Notes: generated by a model from the sequence alone, not told the origin. Shown: positions 7,851 to 23,790, counted from the first letter of the stretch. The stretch is 64,000 nt of DNA from Myxococcales bacterium (GCA_047601445.1 JASGJH010000001.1:4480001-4544000); one strand, 5' to 3'. Numbers and translations are program-made.

Positions 7851-8153
7851 CTACTCACAGACCTCCCCCGCATCGCAAGCGCACCCGCGCCCCTTGTGAC
7901 AGCTCTTCTCCCGACTGATGCACGAGTCCCCGCAAGCCTGCCCCTTCGAACAGACCTTGCAGCACGACTCCTCGGGCACGCACGCGAGCATCACCGCATC
8001 GCCCGCGCCATGATCCGCGACCACCACGCGCCGCGCACCATCCGCCTCCGCGTCTCCGCCCACTGAGGCCCGAGCCTCCGCGCTCCACAGCCCGAGCGCG
8101 TACCCAACGAGTCCTACGGCGATCGGCCCAAGAAGTGCGCGCGTGCTCGGCAT
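7851..8153 (-). CDS. Small exported Cys-rich protein
   Basis: N-terminal hydrophobic segment and C-terminal CCKVCSKGQACGDSCISREKSCHKGRGCAC. Confidence 0.65.
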   Translation of the reverse strand: MPSTRALLGPIAVGLVGYALGLWSAEARASVGGDAEADGARRVVVADHGAGDAVMLACVPEESCCKVCSKGQACGDSCISREKSCHKGRGCACDAGEVCE

Positions 8154-8540
8154 CCTTTCATCATCCCGAAATCCCGCGGGCCCGCGCAATCCACAGCGCG
8201 TGAGGACAGGTTGGTGCGCGACGGATAGTCAATCGTTCGCCACCCATTGATCGCCGTTCAATCCTCGCATTTCCGCGATCCCACGCACGATTCGCGCGCT
8301 CGACGTTAGCCCGTCCCGCAACGCGCCCTGCCCTACCCGCTCCCTACCCGGGGTGGCGCACAAAGTAGACGCGCAGATTTTGCTCACAGGTCGAAACTGG
8401 CCAGTCGTACTATCCATCCAAGGGACAGGCCCGGAGCGACTCCTCTCGTCGCTTCGTTGGGGTTCGCGCGCGCTCGTTCACGTCGCGCGGCGAGCTCGGT
8501 GCACCCGTGCGCAGTTCACTCGCCTTTGACCAGGGAACCC

Positions 8541-9395
8541 ATGACCCTCGCCAACTACGCCGTCGCCAACGCCAACGCACCGGTCGCCATCAGCCCCGGC
8601 ATCTCCGCACCCGCCGGCCCCAAGTTCCCCGACCTACTCGGACCCGGCGCACCCGTACGCGCGCGCGACTTCGAAGCCCAAGGCAACGCGCTCCATCGCA
8701 ACATCGCCATCGCAGTGTGGGGCATCGCCATGCTCGGCCTCGTGGTCGGCACCATGGGCGCATTCCTCGGCCTGCTCATCCTCGGCTGGCTCATCGCGCA
8801 CGTCATGCGCAAGCGCATCCAGGCCCAAATCAAAGGCACCTGCCTCGAGGTCGGCCCCAACCAGCTCCCCGAGATCTACGCCTGCACCAAAGCCTTCGCC
8901 GAACGCCTCGGCCTCAAAGAAGTCCCCCACATCTACATCGCCGAAGGCAACACCGCCAACGCCGCCGCCGTCCGCCTCGGCTCCCGCAACATCGTCTTCC
9001 TCATCGACGACATCGTCTGGGGAGCCCTCAAAGCCGGCGACCCCAACGCCCTCTCCTTCATCATCGCCCACGAACTAGCCCACCACGCCCTCGGGCATAC
9101 CAGCTCGCTGCAGCTCTACCTCTCCACCATCTACAAGCCGCTGTCGCGGCTGAATGAGCTGAGTTGCGATGCGGTGGCGTTGCAGCTCGTGGGGAGTCGG
9201 GAGGCTGCCTACAACGGGATCATCATGCTGATGGTTGGGCCGCAGTTGGTTCCGTATGTGAACAGGGCGGCGTTGTTCGCGCAGGCGGAGCAGGTCGGGC
9301 AGGACAAGATGACGAAGAAGGCGGAGAAGGTGCACTCGCATCCGTTTGTGGCGCGAAGGTTGTGGGAGTTGAGGAACGTGGGGATGGGGCGGTGA
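8541..9395 (+). CDS. M48 family (HtpX/Ste24-like) membrane zinc metallopeptidase
   Basis: Two TM helices, NAAA, HELAHH (HExxH), ELSCD, HSHP...R. Confidence 0.88.
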   Translation: MTLANYAVANANAPVAISPGISAPAGPKFPDLLGPGAPVRARDFEAQGNALHRNIAIAVWGIAMLGLVVGTMGAFLGLLILGWLIAHVMRKRIQAQIKGTCLEVGPNQLPEIYACTKAFAERLGLKEVPHIYIAEGNTANAAAVRLGSRNIVFLIDDIVWGALKAGDPNALSFIIAHELAHHALGHTSSLQLYLSTIYKPLSRLNELSCDAVALQLVGSREAAYNGIIMLMVGPQLVPYVNRAALFAQAEQVGQDKMTKKAEKVHSHPFVARRLWELRNVGMGR

Positions 9396-9460
9396 GCTGT
9401 ATCTGGCTTGCGAGCGTCAGAACGCAACAGGGTTAGGTCCATGTCACGCGAGTTGAGGGG

Positions 9461-12400
9461 ATGAAGAAATCACCTGAGGTGGAGACACCGGAAGCCTGGG
9501 ACCTGAGTCGCGTTCGGCTCACGGTACAGGCCGTATCCGACGGCGCCGACGTTGGCGCGGCAACTCGCCTGTCGTCGAGACACGTTGGCTACCACCTTCA
9601 AGCGGGCAGAATTCTCGGATGGCTAGCTGGCGACAACAAGCACCCGACAGTCACCGATGCGGGACGAGCGCTCCTTGCAGCGCCACGAGACTCCGCTCAG
9701 GAAGCCGAGGCGCTTCGCTCCGCCGTTTCCGAATGCGCTGCCGTCAAGGTCGTCGTGGGGGAGCGCTTCAGTGGGATAACGTTCGAGGAGCTGGTCGCGG
9801 CTCTCGAAAGTAGCCCGCTAACCGGACTTGCGCGATCAACGGCCAAGAAGCGGGCCGCGGCGTTGCTGCGATGGCGTGACCGAACTCAGAGCGCTACGCC
9901 CGAGCTACCGTCCCAGGCAGAGAGCGCGCGGTGTGAACGCATACTTGTTCTTCAGTTCAGCGACATCCACACCAAAGACCACGCCGATCGCCAAAGGCTC
10001 GAGCACCGGCTATCCAGAGCGATATCGGCAGTAGCTGCACGGCCCGAAATCTATGGAATACGAGAATGCCTCGTGATCATATCCGGCGACATCTCGTACT
10101 CGGGGACGACAAGCCAGTTCGAACTCGCAAGCAGCGCACTGGAAAGCGCGCTTGGCAAGCTCAAGAGCCGCCTTTCTCTAAACGATGTCCAGGTCGTAGT
10201 CACCCCAGGCAACCACGACTGCGACTTTACCGTCGAGTCAAAGGCACGCGGAAAGCTGATCTCGTCAGTAGATCCGGCCGATGTAGACGTTTCATACGTT
10301 GAGGCATGCACAAGTACCCAAACAAGTTTCTGGAAGTTCGCATCGTTTTGGCACACCGGGCCGACGAGAAGCGTCGAAAAGAAAGTGGCAATGGAGATCC
10401 ACAGGATCTCCATTGCTGGGCGGACGATTCATGTCAACTCGTTGAACACTGCCTGGATGTCGACCATAGATGAGAAGCAGGGTGCACTCGTCTTTCCGAG
10501 TTCTGGAATCACAGCATTGCGAGCGCCATCGCCTGCTCCTGACGTCGTGATTACGGTTGGCCACCATGGCTACAACTGGTTTGAAGCCAACAACGCACGT
10601 GCCCTACGGACATCTGTCGAGACCTGCTCCGACATCCTCTTCAGTGGGCACGAGCATATGGCAGACAGCACGCTGAAGCTCGGATCCGCCGGCGACACCT
10701 CTTGGCATATCGAAGGCGGAGTCTTGAACGACAGCACCACCGCTGAGAACAGCTCGTTTAATGCGGTGATTCTGGACATAGCGGGAGGAGAACTTCGGGC
10801 TCTGTCGTTCCGGTGGAACGATGCAGACGACATGTATGTCATCGACCGTGAATCGTCACCCGTTGCATTCCAGCGCAACCAGTTGCGAATGAGGAGCGAA
10901 TTCCAGCTCAACCAAGCCTTCCAAGCGGCGTTGAACGACCCCGGAGAATCGTATCAGCATCCGAGAAAGTCTCCGATTCGGCTCCAGGATCTCTTTGTCT
11001 ACCCAAACCTGGAGGAGCGCGTTCACGAGAAGCACGCAGATGTCGCGCGACTAATCAGGACGCCTATCGATTTCATACTGCGAGAGCAATGCGTCCTGGT
11101 TCTTGCGCCTGAACGCGCAGGCAAGACGGCAATGGCACGCATGCTTTTCTCCGATCTATACAGGCTTGGATTCGTGCCGGTACTGATTGACGGGCGCCAA
11201 CTCGACAACCCGGCACCCGAGCGCGTCAACGCCAGAGCCGACGAATCGTTCGTTGAAGGCTACGACAGGGCGCTTCTTGAACGCTTTCGACAGCTCGACC
11301 CTGCCAAGCGGGTCTGCATCGTGGACGATCTTCACCGTTCTCCCCTCAACATCGCGGCCAAGGACAAGGCAATCGGAGTATTGGCAAGTTTTGCGGATAT
11401 GGTCGTAGTGTTCACCGATGAAAACTTCGACGTCGCAGCGGTCAGCGGCCCTACTCAAAGCTCCCATCTCTGGGATTTCTCGCATTGCACGATGCTCCCT
11501 TTGGGACACCGGGTGAGGTACGACTTAGTGTCGCGATGGTGCAATCTCGGGCGGGGCCATGGCGACGACCCCGATGCAGTTTCCCGAGAAACCGAGCGTC
11601 GCGACAGGACCGTAACACGTCTAATTGGCCAGAACTTTTTGCCTGCATATCCAGTCTTTGTCCTGCTCTGTTTACAGCAGCTGGAGATCAAGGCTCCTGA
11701 GAGCAACCTCGGATCATTTGGCCATCTCTACGAGGCGCTACTCACGCGCAACCTGATAAGCGGAGGCTCATCCTCGGGAATGGACCTGGATGCAAAGCAG
11801 CAGTTTCTTTCCCATTTCGCTTTCCACCTATTTGAGAGCGGCTCCGAAAGCACTGACAGGACTGCTTTCAATTCGTGTTACGACGAGTACTGCGAGCGAT
11901 TCCACGTTCGCTTTTCACTCGAACAACTTGAGAAGGAGCTGCTTGCCAGCCTAGTATTCGAGGTAAAATCCGGGCGGTATTGCTTCAAGTATCAGTACGC
12001 ATACCTATTTTTTGTTGCCAGGTATCTGCGAGATCGTTTGGACGAGACGAGGATTCGGGGCATCGTCGTTGAACTTTGCCGCAAGCTTCATCACGAGCAC
12101 TCAGCTAACATCCTCCTCTTCCTCTGTCATCTTTCTAAGCACCCATTCGTGCTGGACACTCTCCTGGAGGCGGCGCGGTCCTTGTTCTCCGACGGCATGC
12201 CCCTGGACATGGAAACGGCTCTTTCTCCGATTCACCAGAGGGCGGAGCCACGCACACTACGCCTGGAAGGCGGCGATCATCGCGAGAATCGACGCGCACT
12301 GCGCGATATCCGAGATCAAGGCGAACGCTCACGCGGCGACCGAATCGATCACGACGGATTGCCACCAGAGGTTATGACGTTCACCGCAGCCTACAAGACT

Positions 12401-12994
12401 GTTCACATTTTGGGCCAAGTACTCCGTGGGTTCCCTGGCTCGATTCCTGGAGACAAGAAGCTGGAGATTGCCTCCGAGTGCTACTCTCTCGGGCTGCGCT
12501 CGACACGCGCGCTGATGGAAATGATCATCGCTTCTCGCGAGGAAATCGAGGCCGGCTTGTGCGAGGTAATCGGGAGTCGACGGCCTGGACTTCGTGACGA
12601 TAGCGACAAGCTGCAAAACGCTGCGCGACGCATGCTTTTTGACCTTTGCGAGTCGATGTGTTTCGGGACCATTCAGCACATTTCAGACGCTGTTGGCCTG
12701 CAGACACTCTCACGGACCTACGACGAGGTCTTAAAGAAGCACAGCCCGATTTCATATCGCATCGTCGACCTATCCGTTCACCTAGACCATTTTGACGAGT
12801 TTCCGCAAACCCAACTTGATGGGCTACTACGTGACGCCAAGGGAAAGGTTCTTCCCATGAACCTGATCGGAAGACTGGTCTGGCGCCACATGTACCTCTT
12901 TCCTGTTAATCCAAGACTGATTCAGTCTCTGTGCAGCAAGCTGAACATTCAGTTCACCCTCGCCCTCAAGTCTTCGGGCAAGGGCCGAAGCTAG
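9461..12994 (+). CDS. Multidomain protein: N-terminal winged-helix-like domain, calcineurin-like metallophosphoesterase, STAND/NACHT-like P-loop NTPase, helical C-terminus (probable defence protein)
   Basis: Phosphoesterase motifs FSDIH, ISGDIS, PGNHD, GHH, SGHEH. Walker A APERAGKT (nt 11105-11128), Walker B CIVDDLH, then P-V-F-V and Y.F.Y STAND-like elements. Confidence 0.85.
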   Translation: MKKSPEVETPEAWDLSRVRLTVQAVSDGADVGAATRLSSRHVGYHLQAGRILGWLAGDNKHPTVTDAGRALLAAPRDSAQEAEALRSAVSECAAVKVVVGERFSGITFEELVAALESSPLTGLARSTAKKRAAALLRWRDRTQSATPELPSQAESARCERILVLQFSDIHTKDHADRQRLEHRLSRAISAVAARPEIYGIRECLVIISGDISYSGTTSQFELASSALESALGKLKSRLSLNDVQVVVTPGNHDCDFTVESKARGKLISSVDPADVDVSYVEACTSTQTSFWKFASFWHTGPTRSVEKKVAMEIHRISIAGRTIHVNSLNTAWMSTIDEKQGALVFPSSGITALRAPSPAPDVVITVGHHGYNWFEANNARALRTSVETCSDILFSGHEHMADSTLKLGSAGDTSWHIEGGVLNDSTTAENSSFNAVILDIAGGELRALSFRWNDADDMYVIDRESSPVAFQRNQLRMRSEFQLNQAFQAALNDPGESYQHPRKSPIRLQDLFVYPNLEERVHEKHADVARLIRTPIDFILREQCVLVLAPERAGKTAMARMLFSDLYRLGFVPVLIDGRQLDNPAPERVNARADESFVEGYDRALLERFRQLDPAKRVCIVDDLHRSPLNIAAKDKAIGVLASFADMVVVFTDENFDVAAVSGPTQSSHLWDFSHCTMLPLGHRVRYDLVSRWCNLGRGHGDDPDAVSRETERRDRTVTRLIGQNFLPAYPVFVLLCLQQLEIKAPESNLGSFGHLYEALLTRNLISGGSSSGMDLDAKQQFLSHFAFHLFESGSESTDRTAFNSCYDEYCERFHVRFSLEQLEKELLASLVFEVKSGRYCFKYQYAYLFFVARYLRDRLDETRIRGIVVELCRKLHHEHSANILLFLCHLSKHPFVLDTLLEAARSLFSDGMPLDMETALSPIHQRAEPRTLRLEGGDHRENRRALRDIRDQGERSRGDRIDHDGLPPEVMTFTAAYKTVHILGQVLRGFPGSIPGDKKLEIASECYSLGLRSTRALMEMIIASREEIEAGLCEVIGSRRPGLRDDSDKLQNAARRMLFDLCESMCFGTIQHISDAVGLQTLSRTYDEVLKKHSPISYRIVDLSVHLDHFDEFPQTQLDGLLRDAKGKVLPMNLIGRLVWRHMYLFPVNPRLIQSLCSKLNIQFTLALKSSGKGRS

Positions 12995-13289
12995 GCGCAC
13001 GGGCCGCTCGTGAGCACTTGCGTCGCTGAAGCCTGTACCTTCCTCTGTATGGAGCCCAGGGGCAAAGCACCAACTTAGAGCCGGCAGAGGGCGCCGAGTC
13101 GCATAGAGGCCGGAGCCTTTGAGTTCGAGCACGTTGGATCCAGCGTCGCAGGCAAGCCTGTTCGGAAGCCCTCCAAGATGCCTAAATCGTCAGTTTGGTT
13201 TTCACCCCTATGGTGCAATGACGGAGTTGGTTGAGGAGTGACTCAAAGTCCTAGGAGGATTGAGTGACCTAGGATAGGGTACGTACAGG

Positions 13290-13465
13290 GGCTCACAGGA
13301 GCTCTACACATCCGGCTACATCCTTTGCGGGCCCAATGCGCATTTGGGGTCGTGAGGGTCGCATCGGCGCGGGTCACCGCTCTGACGCATGAAATATACT
13401 TTTTCGCTCGGATGCGGCTTGGTGCGGGAGCTTGCGAGCAAACGCACCATTTTTAATTTGGTGTT
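13290..13465 (+). ncRNA. Putative DRT9-type RT-associated non-coding RNA (boundaries approximate)
   Basis: ORF-free region abutting the RT start. Stems: CATCCG(13309-14)/CGGATG(13409-14), CCCAA/TTGGG (about 13332-48), extended hairpin 13361-13388 (GCGG-GTCA-CCGC core), TGGTGCG(13420-26)/CGCACCA(13443-49). T5 tracts at 13400-04 and 13450-54. Confidence 0.7.
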
Positions 13466-13471
13466 GTTGCG

Positions 13472-15019
13472 ATGGCATCACGGACTGAGACCCATCTGCT
13501 GAACGCGATCCAGGATGAGGCGCGCAAGCTCATCCTTCGATATCAGCGTTATGCTCACGATCTGCACAACGAGGCCATGAGAATCGGGCGTCGAGCAGGA
13601 AGGGTTCCGCCGAAGGAAGTCAGGCGGCCGGGCTATTGGTCGTTGCCGGCGTTCGATCCATTTCATGTTCGAGCTCAGGCAGGGGGCTACGCGCATGCCC
13701 TCGCCCGTTCCCTTGAGCGAGACACCTACAAGCCGTGGCCCGCCGTTTCGTACGATGTCCCGAAGTCCGATGGCACGATGCGAGAGGTCAACGTGTTCTC
13801 GGTCGCCGACAATGCGTTCTCTCGTCTCGTTTACAAGGGACTGCTCGCAAAGAACTGCACGCGTTTCAGCGCTCGCTGCTATGCCTATAGGACCGACTTG
13901 ACCGTCCATGATGCGATTACACACATCGCGTCAGAGTTTCGTTCAACGCAGCGCCTCTTCATTGCGGAGTTCGATTTCAGCAAGTTTTTCGACTCGATTT
14001 CGCATGACCACATTCTTCGGGTACTAGACAGCGGTCAGTTCCTTCTGACGAATCGAGAGAGACGAATCATTGAGTCGTTTCTACGCACCCCGACTCTAGG
14101 AGTTGCCAGCTGGACGAACCGCTCGGTCCTAGTGCGCGAGCGTGGAATTCCCCAGGGAACTTCCCTCTCTCTGTTCTTGGCCAACGCAGCAGCAAGCCCC
14201 CTCGACAGGACGCTCGAACGCATGAGCGTGGGTTTCGCACGCTATGCCGACGACACAATTATTTGGTCCACCGACTACAGCGCAGTCCTGGGTGCCGTCG
14301 ACGCTTTGTCTGAGGCTGCTCGTCTGATGGGAGTTCAGATAAACCTGAAAAAGTCCGGCGGAATTAGCCTAGTTTGCCCACCAACCTACCGAAGCCCTGA
14401 GCTTGCTTCAAGCAAGGCGTCGGCTGTCTATCTCGGCTACGGGATCTCGCAATCATTCGTTTCGATTAGCCCGAACAATGTAGAGGGCATCAAGAAGCGG
14501 ATAGCCGAGATCGTGTTTCGCAACCTACTCGAGTTTCCATCGAATGGCATACTGAACGCCGCTCGCGTAGACCCTCCTATTGACCGGGACTACTACGTCA
14601 TGATTCTTCAGATCAGACGCTACCTATACGGTGACGTGAGTGAGCTTCAACTTCGTAGATTCTTCAATCGCACAAGCGCAAGGATTCGCTTTAGAGGGCT
14701 CATGTCTTTCTACCCGTTGGTCGACCACTTCGACCAGCTGAAGGCGCTTGATGGCTGGATGGTTCATACGATCGCGACGACGCTCAAACTGCGTGGCGAC
14801 TACTTTGTCAAAGCCGGAGTCCAACTGCCTCGTCCGCACGGCCTGAGTCGTGGTGAACTCCTTACCTTTCAGGGGCGAAGCACAAAGGACACCCCACTTG
14901 ACTTGCGCATTCCGAGCTTCGTACGGATGGCTCGCCTAATGCAGCGGGTTACGAAGTTGCGTGGAGCCAATGCAATCGCGAATCCCAAGTCATTTGAGTA
15001 CTACTGGGGCCTGACGTGA
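13472..15019 (+). CDS. Defence-associated reverse transcriptase, DRT9/UG28-like
   Basis: VPKSDG..R, YAYR, EFDFSKFFDSISH, GIPQGTSLSLFLAN, RYADD (YADD at 14243-54), KKS, LGY. The flanking motifs RPGYW..FDPF.V, IRRYLYG, GLMSFYPLV, LDGW, IPSF and NPKSFEYY match my recollection of DRT9 RTs. No maturase or endonuclease domain. Confidence 0.88.
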   Translation: MASRTETHLLNAIQDEARKLILRYQRYAHDLHNEAMRIGRRAGRVPPKEVRRPGYWSLPAFDPFHVRAQAGGYAHALARSLERDTYKPWPAVSYDVPKSDGTMREVNVFSVADNAFSRLVYKGLLAKNCTRFSARCYAYRTDLTVHDAITHIASEFRSTQRLFIAEFDFSKFFDSISHDHILRVLDSGQFLLTNRERRIIESFLRTPTLGVASWTNRSVLVRERGIPQGTSLSLFLANAAASPLDRTLERMSVGFARYADDTIIWSTDYSAVLGAVDALSEAARLMGVQINLKKSGGISLVCPPTYRSPELASSKASAVYLGYGISQSFVSISPNNVEGIKKRIAEIVFRNLLEFPSNGILNAARVDPPIDRDYYVMILQIRRYLYGDVSELQLRRFFNRTSARIRFRGLMSFYPLVDHFDQLKALDGWMVHTIATTLKLRGDYFVKAGVQLPRPHGLSRGELLTFQGRSTKDTPLDLRIPSFVRMARLMQRVTKLRGANAIANPKSFEYYWGLT

Positions 15020-15495
15020 TGGTAGCGCTGATTGAACCTTCGTAAGATGGGTTGGGTTTGAACTCGAGCGCGGGTTGTCACCGGCATTGGCCCAAAGGCC
15101 TCGCGCGGCGCACTAGGCGTCGAAGCTCTGCAGTTTTGCGCGTGGGCCTCTCGGGTCCGTGGGGCATGCGCCGTTGAACGTTGCGTCGGGGGCGAGGCTC
15201 AAGTCGCTCACGGTCGAGACGGCCCTGTGGCCATCTTGCCGTTTGCGGGCGGTCTCTAGGGTTGGATCGAGGACAGCCTTCTGTCTGAGCTGGCGGGCTC
15301 GGCGGTGCCGAACCGCATTCGCGGAGTCGGTATGGAGAGAAGCCGGTCACTGGGCACTAGCACATTGCGAGATGCTGCGAGGGCAAGCAGAGACGAGTGC
15401 CGAGATCGGGCGGGACTGGATTCAAAGTTGGAAGCAACGGTTTGACCGACATTGGCGTAGACATCGAGGTTTCTCGGCGAGATACACTCAGCTCC

Positions 15496-16248
15496 ATGCA
15501 TGAGTCAGATGCCGCAGACATCGAGTCCCAAGCCACTCAAGACATGCTAATGCGCCACTCGGTTCTGATGCTGTTCGCCAGCCGAACTACTGGAGAGTGG
15601 TCTCAGGGAACTGGCACGTTCTTCGAGACTGATCGGCATCACTATCTCGTCACCGCAGCTCACGTTGCCGAGGACTTAGGGGCAGATGATCTTCGGTTCG
15701 GGCTGATTCTGCAGCCCGGGGGGAGCAAGGCAATCTTCGAGCCGGAGAGGCCGGACCACTGGATTTTAGGGAATCAGGCGACGCGCGATGTTGCGGCGTT
15801 CCGACTTGCGCGTGGGGACGTGCAGGAGATCAAACGTGCCGGATTTCGATTCCTCAGGGTCTCCGACTTCGCCGACGGCGAGTTCGGGCGATTTGCGATC
15901 TACGGCTACCCAAAGGCCATGACAACAATTGACCATCATGGCCTGCACAAGGATTCGGTGTGGCTCGAAGTACCTGCGTATGAGGGCTCCGAACGGTGCG
16001 GGAAGAATGAGTTCCTACTGAAGTGGCACGACGGCATTGATTTTCATCTGGGCGGCGTAAGTGGTTCGCCGGTGTGGGCCGTCCTCGAACAGAGACCAGG
16101 CTCCATTTGGGGCGGACCAACGGCTCACTACAAATTCTGCGGTATCCAGATCAGCATAAAGAAGGGCGAATGGATCAAATTCGTGCAGGCGTTTGTGGTG
16201 GGAGAAATGCTCGATCTTGCAGATCGCATCCAGATCATTCGGAAGTAG
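15496..16248 (+). CDS. Trypsin-like (PA clan) serine protease, no signal peptide
   Basis: GTGTFF, YLVTAAHV (His), DVAAF (Asp), GYP, GGVSGSPV (Ser). Start uncertain (ORF open from 15397). Confidence 0.8.
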   Translation: MHESDAADIESQATQDMLMRHSVLMLFASRTTGEWSQGTGTFFETDRHHYLVTAAHVAEDLGADDLRFGLILQPGGSKAIFEPERPDHWILGNQATRDVAAFRLARGDVQEIKRAGFRFLRVSDFADGEFGRFAIYGYPKAMTTIDHHGLHKDSVWLEVPAYEGSERCGKNEFLLKWHDGIDFHLGGVSGSPVWAVLEQRPGSIWGGPTAHYKFCGIQISIKKGEWIKFVQAFVVGEMLDLADRIQIIRK

Positions 16249-16515
16249 CCTTCAGGTCTGTTTGAGGTTCGCGCGCTCTTGTCCGGTGCCGAGGCACAGC
16301 GCTGCGAGGTTCAAGCGAGGCACACGATAGCGAGCGTTGTGTTTACGGACGAGTCGAGCAAGACTGCGCTTACGGTCCCGTTCCGGCACGGCTTCAAGGC
16401 GTGGAAATGATCGGGATAGGCAGTTGAGGGCGCGCGGCTGTAGGCCCCGTAAACTCTCTTGCAAAGCCACGCTATTTCATCCTGCCAGTGACCAGCTCGC
16501 CGCCCTGCCCTCCGC

Positions 16516-16818
16516 CTACCTGCCCACCCAATACCCCGGCTTCCTCCGCTGATGCGCCACTGCCAGCACCTGCAACTCGTCGCCGACCACCCGCACGATC
16601 ACAAGATACGGGAACCGTCTCAATAGGTGCACGCGACGGGTCGGACTTCCCTTCCGCCATGCTCGTCCGCTGCGCGGAAACTGCCGCGCGCGCGCAAGCA
16701 CCACGCCTAGCTCGTCTACAAACGCGTCGCCGAGCTCGGCGCTCATCTCAGCGAAGTAGCGCTGAGCTTCCTGCACCTCGCGGGCGGCCGCAGGGTGGAA
16801 GAGAACCCTACGCGTCAC
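16516..16818 (-). CDS. Type II toxin, ParE/RelE family
   Basis: FHPAA..E...A..YF, RRFPY, VLAVAHQRRKPGYW; overlaps the antitoxin stop by 4 nt. Confidence 0.9.
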   Translation of the reverse strand: MTRRVLFHPAAAREVQEAQRYFAEMSAELGDAFVDELGVVLARARQFPRSGRAWRKGSPTRRVHLLRRFPYLVIVRVVGDELQVLAVAHQRRKPGYWVGR

Positions 16819-17042
16819 CGCCGTAGACTCTCGCGCAACCCATCCCAGTCGATTAGCTCGACTTCGCCCTTCTCAATCTCTTCCTCACGCCGATCGAGCT
16901 CCGCGCTCCAGGCGGCCTCAAAGTCCGCCACGTCTTCGCCGGGAGGGTCGAGTGTCTTGAGCAGCTGGGTGATGACCTTGGCGCGCTCGGAGCTGTCGAG
17001 CGCACTCGCTTGCTTCACGATGTCGGCAACCTTGGAGGCCAT
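16815..17042 (-). CDS. Putative addiction-module antitoxin
   Basis: 75 aa, acidic: ERAK...LL.TLD...AAWSAELDRR...I..G.V.LIDW; directly upstream of the toxin. Confidence 0.85.
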   Translation of the reverse strand: MASKVADIVKQASALDSSERAKVITQLLKTLDPPGEDVADFEAAWSAELDRREEEIEKGEVELIDWDGLRESLRR

Positions 17043-17074
17043 GGTTCGAGTTTACCTTTCCGCAGCTCCAAATC

Positions 17075-17106
17075 AAAAGGGCGAGCCTGCTGCTGCAAAC
17101 TCGCCC
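17075..17106 (-). terminator. Intrinsic terminator downstream of nrdJ
   Basis: Minus strand GGGCGAGTTTGC-AGCA-GCAGGCTCGCCC followed by TTTT. Confidence 0.8.
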
Positions 17107-17143
17107 CCTTCATCTAGCTCTCACTCGGGTGAGGCAGTGCTCG

Positions 17144-20100
17144 TCACGAGCACCCCATGCTCGCCCCGCAATTCAGGCACTTATAACAAGCCCCGTTCCG
17201 CACCGTAATGTGCCCGCACGTATCGCACATCGGCGCGTCCCCCATCATCTCACCCAAGTGCTGGTCGAGCACGCTGCTAGCACCCGCCCCATACTCCTTC
17301 GCACTCGCGCTCGAGCTCGAAGGCGGCGGCGGCAAGCTACTCGCTTCACCCGGTGAGTACTGATGCACCGCCCCCACGTCAGTCGGATCCTTCATGTCCG
17401 CCTGAACTTCATCCGGCGGCACATGCGCAAGGTCATACCGCTTGATGTACTCCACACCCAGCGTGCGGAAGATGTAGTCGATGATCGAGGTGGCGAACTT
17501 GATGTTCGGGTGCCCCTCAACCGGACCCTGCGGCTCGAAGCGCGTGAACGTGAACTGCTCGACATAGCTGCCGAGTGGCACGCCGTGCTGGAGACCCATG
17601 GACACGCTGATGGCGAAGCAGTTCATGAGTGAGCGGAAGGCTGCGCCTTCCTTGTGCATGTCGACGAAGATTTCGCCGAGCTCGCCGCTGTCGTACTCAC
17701 CGGTGCGCAGGAAGACCTTGTGGCCGGCCACGCGGGCTTCCTGGGTGAAGCCGTGGCGCTTCTTGGGCAAGCGGTGACGAACGGTGGGAGGGGGCGAGAG
17801 GCCTTCCTTGAGCTTGGCTGCCGGACGCGCTGCGACGGCGGGCACGGGGGCCGGGGCCGGGGCTTCGATCTTGGCGACGGCCTTGGTCTCGGACTTTTCC
17901 TTCTTGTCTTCGGTGCCGCTGTTGAGCGGTTGGCTGAGCTTGCAGCCATCGCGGTAGAGGGCGACTGCCTTGAGGCCGAGCTTCCAGCCCTGCATGTACA
18001 CGTCGGCTACGTCTTCTACCGTCGCGTCATTGGGCAGGTTGACGGTCTTGGAAATGGCGCCGCTCAAGAAGGGCTGAGCGGCGGCCATCATGCGCACGTG
18101 GGACATCGGAGCGAGGAATCGCTTGCCCTTCTTGCCGCAGCGGTTCGCGCAGTCGAACACGGGCAGGTCTTCGTCTCGAAGGTGGGGGGCACCTTCGATC
18201 GTCTGACGACCGAGCACCGTGTCGTTCAGCTCTTCGATCTGTTCGGGGGAAAGACCGAAGTGCTTGAGGAGGTTGAAACCAGGCTTGGCAGCCAACTCGG
18301 CGGGAACTCCGAGTCGGTCATAGGCTTCCTTACCGATGACCCAGAGCGCGAGGGCCTGACCCACGTCGAACACGCCCACGAGAGCCTTCTCGGCCTTGGC
18401 GATTTCGGCGTCGGAGAGTCCCTTTTCCGCGAGGATCTTGCGGCTGAGGTGTGGCGCACCCGTGAAGGTGTTGGTGCCGCTGATGAAGGCCACGATGTCC
18501 GCGGTCTGCGCGTCGGAGTAACCGAGGCGCTTGAGGGCGTCGGGCACGGAGTTGTTGACGATCTTGAAGTAACCGCCGCCGGCGAGCTTCTTGAACTTCA
18601 CGAGCGCGAAGTCGGGCTCGATGCCGGTGGTGTCGCAATCCATCAAGAGACCGATGGTGCCGGTGGGCGCGAGCACGGTGGCCTGCGCGTTGCGGTAACC
18701 GCTCTTCTCCCCCGCGCGCACGGCGAGGTCCCAGTCGTAGGCGCCCGCGGCGAGCACGGAGCTGATGACGTCGTCGGCGGCGCCGCCCTGGGCCTGGAAG
18801 TCGTTCTGCCAGGTGTGGGCTGCATTCTGGTGCTTGCGCATCACGCGCAGCATGGGGTCACGGTTCGGGGCGTAACCCGCGAACGGTCCCTTGCTCTCGG
18901 CCATCTGGGCGCTCACGGCGTAGGCGTGGCCGCACAGGATGGCGGTGAGTCCGGCGCACAGCGCGCGGCCCTCTTCGCTGTCGTAGGGGATGCCGAGGCG
19001 CATCAGCAGCGTGCCGAGGTTGGCGTAGCCGAGACCGAGCGGACGGTACTCGTGGCTGTTCTGGGCGATCTTCTCGGTGGGGTAGCTCGAGTAATCGACC
19101 AGGATTTCCTGGGCGATGAAGAGCACGCGGATGGCCTGGCGGTAGCCCTCGATGTCGAACTTGCCGTCGTCGGACAAGAACTTGGTGAGGTTGATGGACG
19201 ACAGGTTGCAGGCCGTGTCGTCGAGGAACATGTACTCGCTGCAGGGGTTGGACGCGTTGATGCGATCGGTGCCCGCGGCGGTGTGCCAGTCGTTGATGGT
19301 GGTGTCGTACTGCACGCCCGGATCGGCGCAGGCCCAGGCGGCCTCGGCGAGCTTCTTCCACAGGTCGCGCGCCTTGAGGGTGCTGGCGACCTTGCCGGTG
19401 GTGCGCTCGTAGGTGCGCCACTCGCCGTCCTGCTCCACGGCCTTCATGAAGGCGTCCGTGACGCGCACGGAGTTGTTGGAGTTCTGGCCGGCGACGGTGT
19501 GATAGGCCTCGCCGTTGAAGTCACTGGAGTAGCCAGCCTTGATGAGGGCCGCCACCTTGCGCTCCTCGCGCACCTTCCAGGTGATGAAGTCCTCGATCTC
19601 CGGGTGGTCCATGTCGAGGCACACCATCTTGGCGGCGCGACGCGTGGTGCCGCCCGACTTGGTGGCGCCCGCAGCGCGGTCGAACACCTCGAGGAAGCTC
19701 ATGAGGCCGGAGCTGGTGCCGCCGCCCGAGAGCTTCTCGGTGATGCCGCGGATCTTGGAGAAGTTGGAGCCGGTGCCGGAGCCGTACTTGAAGAGGCGGG
19801 CTTCGTTCTTGATGAGGTCGTAGATGCCCATCAGGTCGTCCGAGACGCTCTGGATGAAGCAGGCGGAGCACTGGGGCTGCTCGTAGGCGTTCTTGGTCTC
19901 GGCGACCTTGCCGACGACGGGATCGAAGGCGTAGCTGCCGCCCGAGCCTTCGATGCCATAGCGCTGGAAGAGGCCGCAGTTGAACCACACGGGCGAGTTG
20001 AAGGCGCCCTTCTGGTTGATGAGGATGGAGGAGAGCTCGGCCTCGAAGGTGTCGGCGTCTTCGGTGGAGGCGAAGTAGCCGCCGAACTTCTCACCGGCCT

Positions 20101-20461
20101 CGCGGATGGTGTGCGAGACGCGGTAGACGAGGTCGCGGGCGGAGGTCTCGCCGCGCTTGGCGTCGCCGTTGATGCCGGCCTTGCGGAAGTACTTGGAGAC
20201 GGCGATATCGGTGGCGAGCTGGGACCAGCTGGCGGGGATCTCCGCGTTCTTCAGCTGGAAGACGACGGTGCCGTCCGGGTCGGTGATGACGCTGTCGCGG
20301 TTCTCGTACTTGACCTCATTGAGGGGGTCGACGCCCGGACGCGTGAACATGCGAGCGAGCACCAGGCCCTTGCCGAGGCCCGAGTCACGAGCTGCCTTGG
20401 CGCCGCGACCGTTCGTCTTCTCCGTGTTTTTCTCCACTTCGACCTCCCCTTCCTCTTCCAC
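17144..20461 (-). CDS. nrdJ: Vitamin B12-dependent (class II) ribonucleotide reductase with TSCPD domain and C-terminal Zn ribbon
   Basis: [52 protein letters not shown]-terminal CDTCG...CYKCLNCG. Confidence 0.95.
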
Positions 20462-22942: not shown

Positions 22943-23421
22943 GGCTTGCTCCTTGGTGAGTCAGACTCGCCCGCGAGGGTGCCGAGTTTGGCGACGACCT
23001 TCTTCCAACCTTCGCCCATGATCTTGAGGGCGCCTTCGTTGCGGGGGATGACGAAGCCGGCGTGGACGAGCTTGAGGCGGGTGCCGGCTTGGACTTGGGT
23101 GAGGGTCCAGGTGACGACGGTGTCGAGGGGGGCGCCGTAGCCGGTGTTGGCTTCGTGGCCACCTCTCCAGGCGTAGACCAGGCGTTCGTTGGGGATGACG
23201 TCGAGGACCTGGCAGTGGATCACGCCGTCCCAGGATCCGCCGGGCGTCGTTTGGAAGATGAAGTGCGTGCCCTTCACGGCGGCGAAGCCGGTGGGGGCCA
23301 TGAGCCAGCGCCCCATGAGCTCGCCGTTGGTGAGGGTCTTCCAGAGCACCTCGGGTGCGTGGGGGAAGACTTCGTCGACGACGATCTCCTGGGTTTGAGG
23401 CTTGCGGGCGACTTCGGTCAT
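22939..23421 (-). CDS. SRPBCC (AHSA1-like) domain protein
   Basis: PEVLWKTLT...WLM, V.DV.PNERLVYAW, VTWTL...GTRL.LVH.GF, GW; 4-nt overlaps with both neighbours. Confidence 0.88.
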   Translation of the reverse strand: MTEVARKPQTQEIVVDEVFPHAPEVLWKTLTNGELMGRWLMAPTGFAAVKGTHFIFQTTPGGSWDGVIHCQVLDVIPNERLVYAWRGGHEANTGYGAPLDTVVTWTLTQVQAGTRLKLVHAGFVIPRNEGALKIMGEGWKKVVAKLGTLAGESDSPRSKP

Positions 23422-23747
23422 GGGTCGATTTCCTTGAGTAGGCTGCGAAGGTTCTTGAAGCGCTCGCGCCAGAAGGTGCCGTAGTGGCCCATCCAGTCGA
23501 CGAGTGGAGCGAGGCCCTTGGGCTCGGCGCGATAGAAGACGTTGCGGCCCTGGGCGCGGTCGGCGATGAGGCCCGCTTGCTTGAGCGAGCGCAGGTGCTG
23601 CGAGATGGCGCCTTGCGTGACGCCGCTGCCCTGCGTGAGCTCGACGACGCTGATCTCCTGGGACTTGACGATGCGCTCGAACACGGCGCGCCGCGTGGGA
23701 TCGGCGAGCGTGCGCATGACGGCGTCGAGGGATGCAGCGTGGGCCAT
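23418..23747 (-). CDS. ArsR/SmtB family transcriptional regulator
   Basis: LADPTRR, SVVEL, ISQHLRSLKQAGLI, GR.VFY. Confidence 0.92.
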   Translation of the reverse strand: MAHAASLDAVMRTLADPTRRAVFERIVKSQEISVVELTQGSGVTQGAISQHLRSLKQAGLIADRAQGRNVFYRAEPKGLAPLVDWMGHYGTFWRERFKNLRSLLKEIDP

Positions 23748-23756
23748 GGGAAATAC

Positions 23757-23790
23757 ATTAGTGCGCACTAATTAATTAGTCAACGCTAAT
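23757..23790. promoter_or_regulatory. Double palindromic operator ATTAG-N6-CTAAT, likely ArsR autoregulatory site
   Basis: Perfect palindrome ATTAGTGCGCACTAAT 23757-72 and ATTAGTCAACGCTAAT 23775-90, just upstream of the ArsR start. Confidence 0.8.

Follow-up and report, generated by a model that had tools for sequence, protein, structure and literature searches.

A Myxococcales block with DS-8, DRT9 and trypsin-fold protease genes reads as a defence island of independent modules

Do a metallophosphatase-NTPase gene, a reverse transcriptase (RT) gene preceded by a non-coding RNA (ncRNA) and a protease gene that follow one another in a Myxococcales genome form one composite anti-phage system, or are they modules that work independently of each other in the same island? 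This question is raised by positions 9461-16248 of a 64,000-nucleotide stretch of DNA (Myxococcales bacterium, GCA_047601445.1 JASGJH010000001.1:4480001-4544000), which was analysed at its full length and which we call the window. A sequence-only reading of this stretch had offered both answers: the genes could be independent modules of a defence island, or they could form a coupled system not described before. We found that the first gene belongs to the DS-8 family and that the second encodes a DRT9 RT, both of which are published as self-sufficient, and that the partners do not recur together elsewhere, so that the first of the two answers is the better supported one. We therefore consider it about 80% probable that 9461-16248 is a horizontally acquired defence island of three independently working modules, and we read it as an ordinary island because DS-8 and DRT9 are both reported to work alone, while the third gene has no fixed partner.

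The first gene was identified by comparing its product with curated protein families. The protein matched the NCBIfam equivalog family NF053861 (DS8_antiphage) with 847.6 bits against a cut-off of 790, its residues 165-1163 covering positions 1-994 of the 994-position profile, and a whole-genome search with the same family again placed it over the cut-off, at 848.2 bits. It also matched two PADLOC PDC-S60 models (E 1.6e-75 and 2.5e-24) and the Pfam Metallophos family (residues 163-400, 32.7 bits, cut-off 21.5), and nSTAND_NTPase4 gave 22.7 bits, under its cut-off of 27. The motifs GDxxxxG, GNHD, GHHG/GHEH and GKT can be read in the translation. As in other DS-8 proteins, a metallophosphatase domain with its catalytic motifs is followed by a P-loop NACHT/STAND NTPase and then by a long C-terminal region, the profile is matched over its full length, and GNHD and GKT are intact, so that the proposal of a metallophosphoesterase-STAND NTPase was correct for this gene. 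In the DefensePredictor study (PMC13092281), the DS-8 of Escherichia coli is described as a single-protein defence system with metallophosphatase and NACHT domains that protects when cloned alone and that no longer defends when either domain is mutated; its substrate is given there as not known, a nucleotide signal being raised as a possibility.

Unlike published DS-8, the copy in the window carries about 160 extra residues at its N-terminus (9461-9940, + strand), which lie outside the profile, since this starts at residue 165. The three other full-length members that we compared, which come from the same phylum, are also devoid of this part: their own residues 11-42 are the first to align, and they do so only from residues 158-161 of the window protein. 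Since residues 5-143 match a separate open reading frame (ORF) of 272 amino acids (aa) in a genome of the same order (32% identity, E 4e-7), the extension is, as judged from this similarity, a real domain. It is possibly winged-helix-like, as Atlas clusters annotated DUF7226/wHTH (winged helix-turn-helix) matched it with a score of 0.85 that serves as a lead only; Pfam gave nothing under E 0.1 for this region. The extension has a guanine-plus-cytosine (GC) content of 0.636, against 0.553 in the remainder of the gene, and a similar GC content at third codon positions (GC3).

For the second gene, the PADLOC Drt9 model matched residues 6-510 of the product from end to end (profile positions 2-487 of 488; E 2.8e-168, 558.7 bits), with the next best RT model at 104 bits, and Pfam RVT_1 covered residues 96-323; YADD is intact. 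According to PMC12483538, in which 438 UG28/DRT9 RT homologues were gathered, DRT9 consists of an RT and an upstream ncRNA, occasionally with a SLATT protein, and constitutes a self-sufficient unit in which a universally conserved poly-U tract of the ncRNA templates poly-dA and the products remain covalently bound to the RT; in SenDRT9, synthesis is probably primed by Y496/Y498 of the C-terminal tail peptide IMNPQSLNYDYE. The RT of the window ends in ...NPKSFEYYWGLT, with Y510 and Y511, and it shares the NPxS...Y arrangement with the SenDRT9 peptide when both tails are compared by eye on the NPxS motif. The closest relatives found, which are 45-49% identical, come from Acidobacteriota metagenome-assembled genomes and from Plesiocystis pacifica.

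The ncRNA was studied by comparing the window with the six closest DRT9 loci, whose RTs show this same range of identity. Alignment of the seven upstream regions revealed a conserved block that ends with ACGCA.GA..AAT.TAC-TTTT, and RNAalifold predicted 29 base pairs for the seven sequences, 12 of them with compensatory changes, together with a long closing stem that has the U tract just 5' of its 3' arm. A covariance model trained on the six relatives, with the window excluded, matched the window (28.2 bits, rough E 3.7e-6, all of the model being covered) at the position given in Table 1, which was the top match on both strands of the 64 kb, the next one having an E of 0.1. This model is narrow, recovering just its six training sequences among the 55 DRT9 loci of the survey described below and nothing in the other 49. 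The folding energy of the first spacer is thermodynamically weak evidence (z -1.62, with 8 of 100 shuffles as good), and an Rfam scan of 8000-18000 (E<=1) gave zero matches, the DRT9 ncRNA lying outside the curated families. Altogether, and as far as sequence comparisons can tell, the second gene and the first spacer are a canonical DRT9 unit, which agrees with the ncRNA and DRT9-like RT that had been proposed. Like SenDRT9 and PsaDRT9 of the DRT9/UG28 group, this unit has an ncRNA and then an RT on one strand, a full-length profile match with YADD, a C-terminal tyrosine pair and a U tract within its structured ncRNA. Unlike DRT9 systems with SLATT, it has no SLATT gene in the window and, unlike in known DRT9s, its ncRNA matches only the model of its own subclade and poly-dA synthesis is predicted from sequence.

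A structured spacer had been claimed for the block, and the covariance model match upheld this for the spacer upstream of the RT gene, whereas the spacer downstream of it showed no excess structure (z +0.32 against shuffles). This second spacer is unremarkable: its GC content of 0.62 is above that of the adjoining genes, its ORFs gave zero Pfam matches up to E 1, it gave zero Rfam matches, and blastx against the neighbours of other DRT9 genes revealed nothing similar (best E 0.78).

The third gene encodes a trypsin-fold serine protease of a sparse and unnamed family, and it is the sole uncharacterised module of the block. Pfam Trypsin_2 (PF13365) reached 22.9 bits on it, below the gathering cut-off of 27.6, and we do not claim membership of that Pfam family; NCBIfam gave no match and the best PADLOC matches, to LmuA and PDC-S45 models, were insignificant (E 0.0014-0.0018). 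A word-based search of 5.8 billion proteins found the protease itself only, in its 250-aa form from the ATG at 15496. When 1.84 billion representatives were searched exhaustively with HMMER, 106 proteins passed E<=1e-3 and 10 passed E<=1e-10 (the query being counted in both); the best relatives are 36-37% identical, nearly all are 200-300 aa long, and the start at this ATG agrees with the family N-termini in the alignment. Several unnamed Atlas clusters of 250-275 aa came up for the protease as well. His56, Asp98 and Ser189 (G-x-S-G) are invariant across 40 aligned family sequences, and the protease is therefore under selection. An AlphaFold2 model made from this 40-sequence alignment (predicted local distance difference test score, pLDDT, 90.8; predicted template modelling score, pTM, 0.90) shows a double beta-barrel flanked on either side by an additional terminal helix, and Foldseek returned at least 500 matches to it in the PDB at E<=0.001, led by thrombin and other trypsin-like proteases at TM scores of 0.5-0.6 and 12-17% identity. 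The fold is thus a chymotrypsin double beta-barrel with a His-Asp-Ser triad. By inspection, the N-terminus is acidic and has no signal peptide, so that the protein looks cytoplasmic and the cytoplasmic trypsin-like protease of the sequence-only reading was confirmed in its fold and its triad. In its chymotrypsin fold, its His/Asp/Ser triad, its apparent cytoplasmic location and its defence-island contexts, this protease resembles PA-clan defence effectors such as the protease-type Lamassu LmuA of PADLOC; unlike LmuA-type proteins, it stands alone, measures about 250 aa, has N- and C-terminal helices of its own and lacks a sensor or NTPase partner.

The composition of the block and its absence from relatives were then considered together. 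As had been noted, the three genes are all ORFs of the + strand (Table 1), the named motifs are all present (GNHD and Walker A GKT in the first protein, YADD in the RT, TAAHV...D...GVSGSP in the protease), and the spacers of about 480 bp that flank the RT gene measure 477 bp (12995-13471) and, up to the ATG at 15496, 476 bp. The block is also GC-poorer than its flanks (0.546-0.576 across ~10000-15500 against 0.63-0.69 on either side, in 1-kb windows) and richer in A/T-ending codons, the three genes having GC3 values of 0.64, 0.64 and 0.66 in their order along the strand, against 0.78-0.89 in six of the seven flanking ORFs that we measured. Given this nearly equal GC3, the trio probably arrived in one piece and from one donor. 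When 60 relatives, 9 from the same genus and the other 51 from the same order, were searched with two protein queries, no orthologue of DRT9 or DS-8 was found, the best other RT match being 31% identical over residues 75-271 and the best other metallophosphoesterase match 22% identical; this absence fits a recent acquisition, and the dips in GC and GC3 point to a foreign origin. In three same-genus genomes, the similarity to the window does not extend past the stop codon of the ribonucleotide reductase gene, and genes of the left flank are missing nearby, so that synteny with these three genomes did not delimit the insertion borders, the gene order next to the reductase gene not being conserved. 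The seventh flanking ORF (22964-23758, - strand) differs from its neighbours by a GC3 of 0.55 at a GC content of 0.66, and it is probably a wrong frame or strand from the crude ORF caller rather than a foreign gene.

If the three genes worked as one system, they would be expected to recur together. A scan of 185,579 species genomes yielded 78 loci, among which 55 are true DRT9 (phmmer E<1e-50), and a DS-8 homologue (tblastn E<=1e-3, phmmer E<=0.01) was found in none of the 78, these 55 included. The protease family, searched as a hidden Markov model, was found at one of the 55 DRT9 loci, L035 of Epilithonimonas pallida, where its gene (8661-9497, - strand) is divergent from the RT gene (9989-11482, + strand) and lies ~490 bp upstream of it, in an island that also holds a Shedu SduA, an HNH protein and a pair made of an AAA protein and an S8 peptidase. 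This is only the second adjacency of the protease family with DRT9 that we found. Around the RT genes, Pfam was run on the 278 ORFs of at least 200 aa that lie within 5 kb, at 53 of the 55 loci (the other two being short contigs without such ORFs). No trypsin family appeared among these 278 ORFs, and Metallophos appeared once, in a stand-alone 251-aa protein beside a Sua5 gene (L030). SLATT_5 was found twice, at L051:11422-12087 in Rothia sp. and at L053:11488-12105 in Sinorhizobium americanum, each time directly downstream of one of the two most divergent DRT9 RTs, in agreement with the published occasional association with SLATT. Tyrosine integrases formed the largest cluster of DRT9 neighbours, with six loci.

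The same question was asked from the side of the protease and of DS-8. Protease-family loci were taken from three samples: 401 genomes of the window's phylum (12 matches at E<=1e-5, three of them full-length besides that of the window; contexts L097, L109 and L110), 401 genomes of the phylum of L035 (4 matches at E<=1e-10, including the genome of L035; contexts L169-L171) and a metagenome scan with an 11-sequence alignment (12 loci; contexts L111-L122). Full-length members were thus present in 4 of 401 genomes in each of the two phyla. Neither a DRT9 RT nor a DS-8 homologue is encoded at any of these 18 loci, 6 genomic and 12 metagenomic, and an all-against-all BLASTP comparison of the 18 revealed no partner gene in common beyond close relatives. 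The contigs of L115, L116 and L117 represent one element, with 99-100% protein identity; it has a second partial match to the family ~1.5 kb upstream and also carries TrbL/VirB4-type conjugation genes and an AbiEii/AbiEi pair. At three other full-length DS-8 loci (L161-L163, 10.9-20 kb), neither the RT nor the protease family was found, and these loci share no conserved neighbour gene with the window. Altogether, the trio was not found together in any other genome searched, and the pair of DS-8 and DRT9 was found at 0 of 55, 0 of 18 and 0 of 3 loci in the three surveys, so that, as far as sequence data go, the coupled three-gene system did not hold up, DS-8 being absent from the DRT9 loci and the protease being present at one of the 55.

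The contexts of the protease family bear on what the third module does, and they suggest a role in defence. Its genes stand beside a Schlafen/AlbA_2 gene and a type II methylase (L109), a patatin, a Ppl-like ATPase and a type IIG restriction-modification enzyme (L110), TIR_2, DUF2971 and a DNA ligase (L114), AbiEii/AbiEi and type IV secretion genes (L117) or an integrase (L112) so that, with L035, defence or mobility genes are found in most of the contexts that offer enough sequence. This pattern and the invariant triad of an enzyme under selection both argue against the view that the protease is not a defence gene, being instead a passenger of mobile elements or a housekeeping-type peptidase found in variable regions; some family members do lie among metabolic genes, next to an epoxide hydrolase (L111) or to a TonB-dependent receptor and an AMP-binding enzyme (L118), neither PADLOC, with nothing better than E 0.0014, nor NCBIfam recognises the protein, and no publication on the unnamed family came to light, although no search aimed at it was made, but on balance we find this view rather doubtful. 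A new anti-phage protease that acts as a single gene on its own is in turn a tentative proposal for the family, to which we would give less than even odds, though more than to a tie with DRT9. A tie to DRT9 would make the protease an optional accessory that cuts the tyrosine-bearing RT tail with its poly-dA, or an effector that is triggered by the poly-dA-protein, DS-8 then being independent. A member of this rare family lies less than 500 bp from the ncRNA-RT unit at 2 of 56 DRT9 loci, those of the window and of L035, the family being as infrequent as the two phylum samples indicate, and a protease partner would be chemically sensible for products that are covalently bound to the RT. However, the family is absent from the other 54 of 56 DRT9 loci, DRT9 RTs are absent from the 18 protease-family loci that were reached independently of DRT9, and the gene is co-oriented and downstream in the window but divergent and upstream in L035. 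Moreover, L035 is a dense defence island in which a chance adjacency is plausible (~10% over 55 loci by a rough estimate that was inferred rather than computed), and the DRT9 systems described in PMC12483538 defend without any protease. Because both genes favour defence islands, we rate a functional link between them as improbable.

Even less credit can be given to one coupled system, in which the product of the RT would be sensed or degraded by the STAND-phosphoesterase and set free by the protease. The shared orientation and the common atypical composition would suit such a system, as would the lack of convincing terminators between the genes (a weak test) and the unusual N-terminal domain of DS-8, which could be an adaptor, but neither the trio nor DS-8 beside DRT9 was seen in a second genome in any of the three surveys, the spacers leave room for separate promoters, and DS-8 (PMC13092281) and DRT9 (PMC12483538) are each reported as protective alone; we consider such a system very improbable indeed. 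A number of observations nevertheless weigh against the reading of three independent modules. The GC3 of the three genes is nearly uniform, which points to a joint arrival, and they are co-oriented, with no terminator found between them by a promoter and terminator consensus scan whose sites were no more numerous than in shuffles and which is uninformative on operon structure. A rare protease family is found directly beside DRT9 twice, in distant lineages. In addition, the neighbour genes came from a crude greedy longest-ORF caller, and trypsin matches no stronger than that of the window's own protease would escape the Pfam thresholds of 1e-5 and 1e-6. Among the 12 metagenomic protease loci, 6 are shorter than 4.5 kb and L115-L117 are three copies of one element, which leaves ~10 informative contexts for the protease family, and only three other DS-8 loci were examined.

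If the modules are independent, each of them would act on its own, and the steps that we propose for DS-8 and DRT9 are drawn from the two papers or from analogy with them. By analogy with published DS-8, the NACHT/STAND NTPase would sense a phage cue, oligomerise and switch on the N-terminal metallophosphatase. By analogy with published DRT9, the ncRNA would scaffold an RT oligomer and offer its U tract as template; upon infection, the RT would be primed by its C-terminal tyrosine (Y510/Y511) and would make long, protein-attached poly-dA that leads to abortive infection. The protease would most likely be a separate single-gene module, possibly triggered by phage or directed against it, whose family would move by itself between defence islands and mobile elements. 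The ParE/antitoxin pair that follows the block (Table 1) would be a further independent unit.

Table 1. Positions of the genes, RNA elements and flanking features of the block in the window
Feature	Position	Strand	Remarks
DS-8 / PDC-S60 family gene	9461-12994	+	1177 aa; metallophosphatase + NACHT/STAND NTPase + C-terminal region
DRT9 ncRNA core (scaffold + template RNA)	13267-13426	+	covariance model match
TTTTT tract, presumed poly-U template for poly-dA synthesis	13400-13404	+	invariant T columns in 7-sequence alignment
DRT9 (UG28) reverse transcriptase	13472-15019	+	515 aa; PADLOC Drt9
Second spacer	15020-15495	.	presumably RT 3' region and protease promoter/5' untranslated region
Trypsin-fold serine protease, unnamed family	15496-16248	+	250 aa from ATG 15496; 283 aa from GTG 15397
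ParE-type toxin	16516-16818	-	100 aa; Pfam ParE_toxin 40.9 bits, cut-off 23
Antitoxin (addiction module component)	16815-17042	-	75 aa; Pfam Unstab_antitox 48.7 bits, cut-off 23.3
M48-type peptidase gene, left flank of trio	8457-9395	+	
Class II ribonucleotide reductase gene, right flank of trio	17144-20461	-	

A toxin-antitoxin (TA) pair had been noted after the block, and such a pair does exist there, although it lies on the strand opposite to that of the three genes and has no apparent link to them. Like type II TA systems of the ParDE type, it has both domains above their Pfam cut-offs, with the antitoxin gene upstream and overlapping the toxin start by 4 nucleotides; the antitoxin also scored 31.9 bits with NCBIfam TIGR02574, which is exactly the cut-off. 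Since the GC3 of the pair is host-like (0.76-0.78, the toxin having 0.76), the pair need not belong to the imported block. No tRNA gene lies within the 64-kb window, and hence no tRNA-linked integration site was found, and a repeat search gave short two-copy matches only. Among these, a 21-nucleotide direct repeat (8457-8477 and 16262-16282, 18 of 21 identical) would bracket the region from the M48 peptidase gene through the protease gene; it was treated as probably due to chance, because the GC dip begins only at ~9460, about 1 kb further in.

This case cautions against taking adjacency in a defence island as the sign of a new composite system. It also adds a high-GC genome of 9.5 Mb, far from the enterobacterial models, to those with a DRT9 whose ncRNA can be recognised, and the added N-terminal domain of this DS-8 could help to define regulation or sensing in the metallophosphatase-NACHT family. 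DS-8 and DRT9 are already described, and the protease family is the uncharacterised part: a sparse, unnamed family of small cytoplasmic proteases with a trypsin fold that recurs among defence and mobility genes and that is a reasonable candidate for phage challenge.

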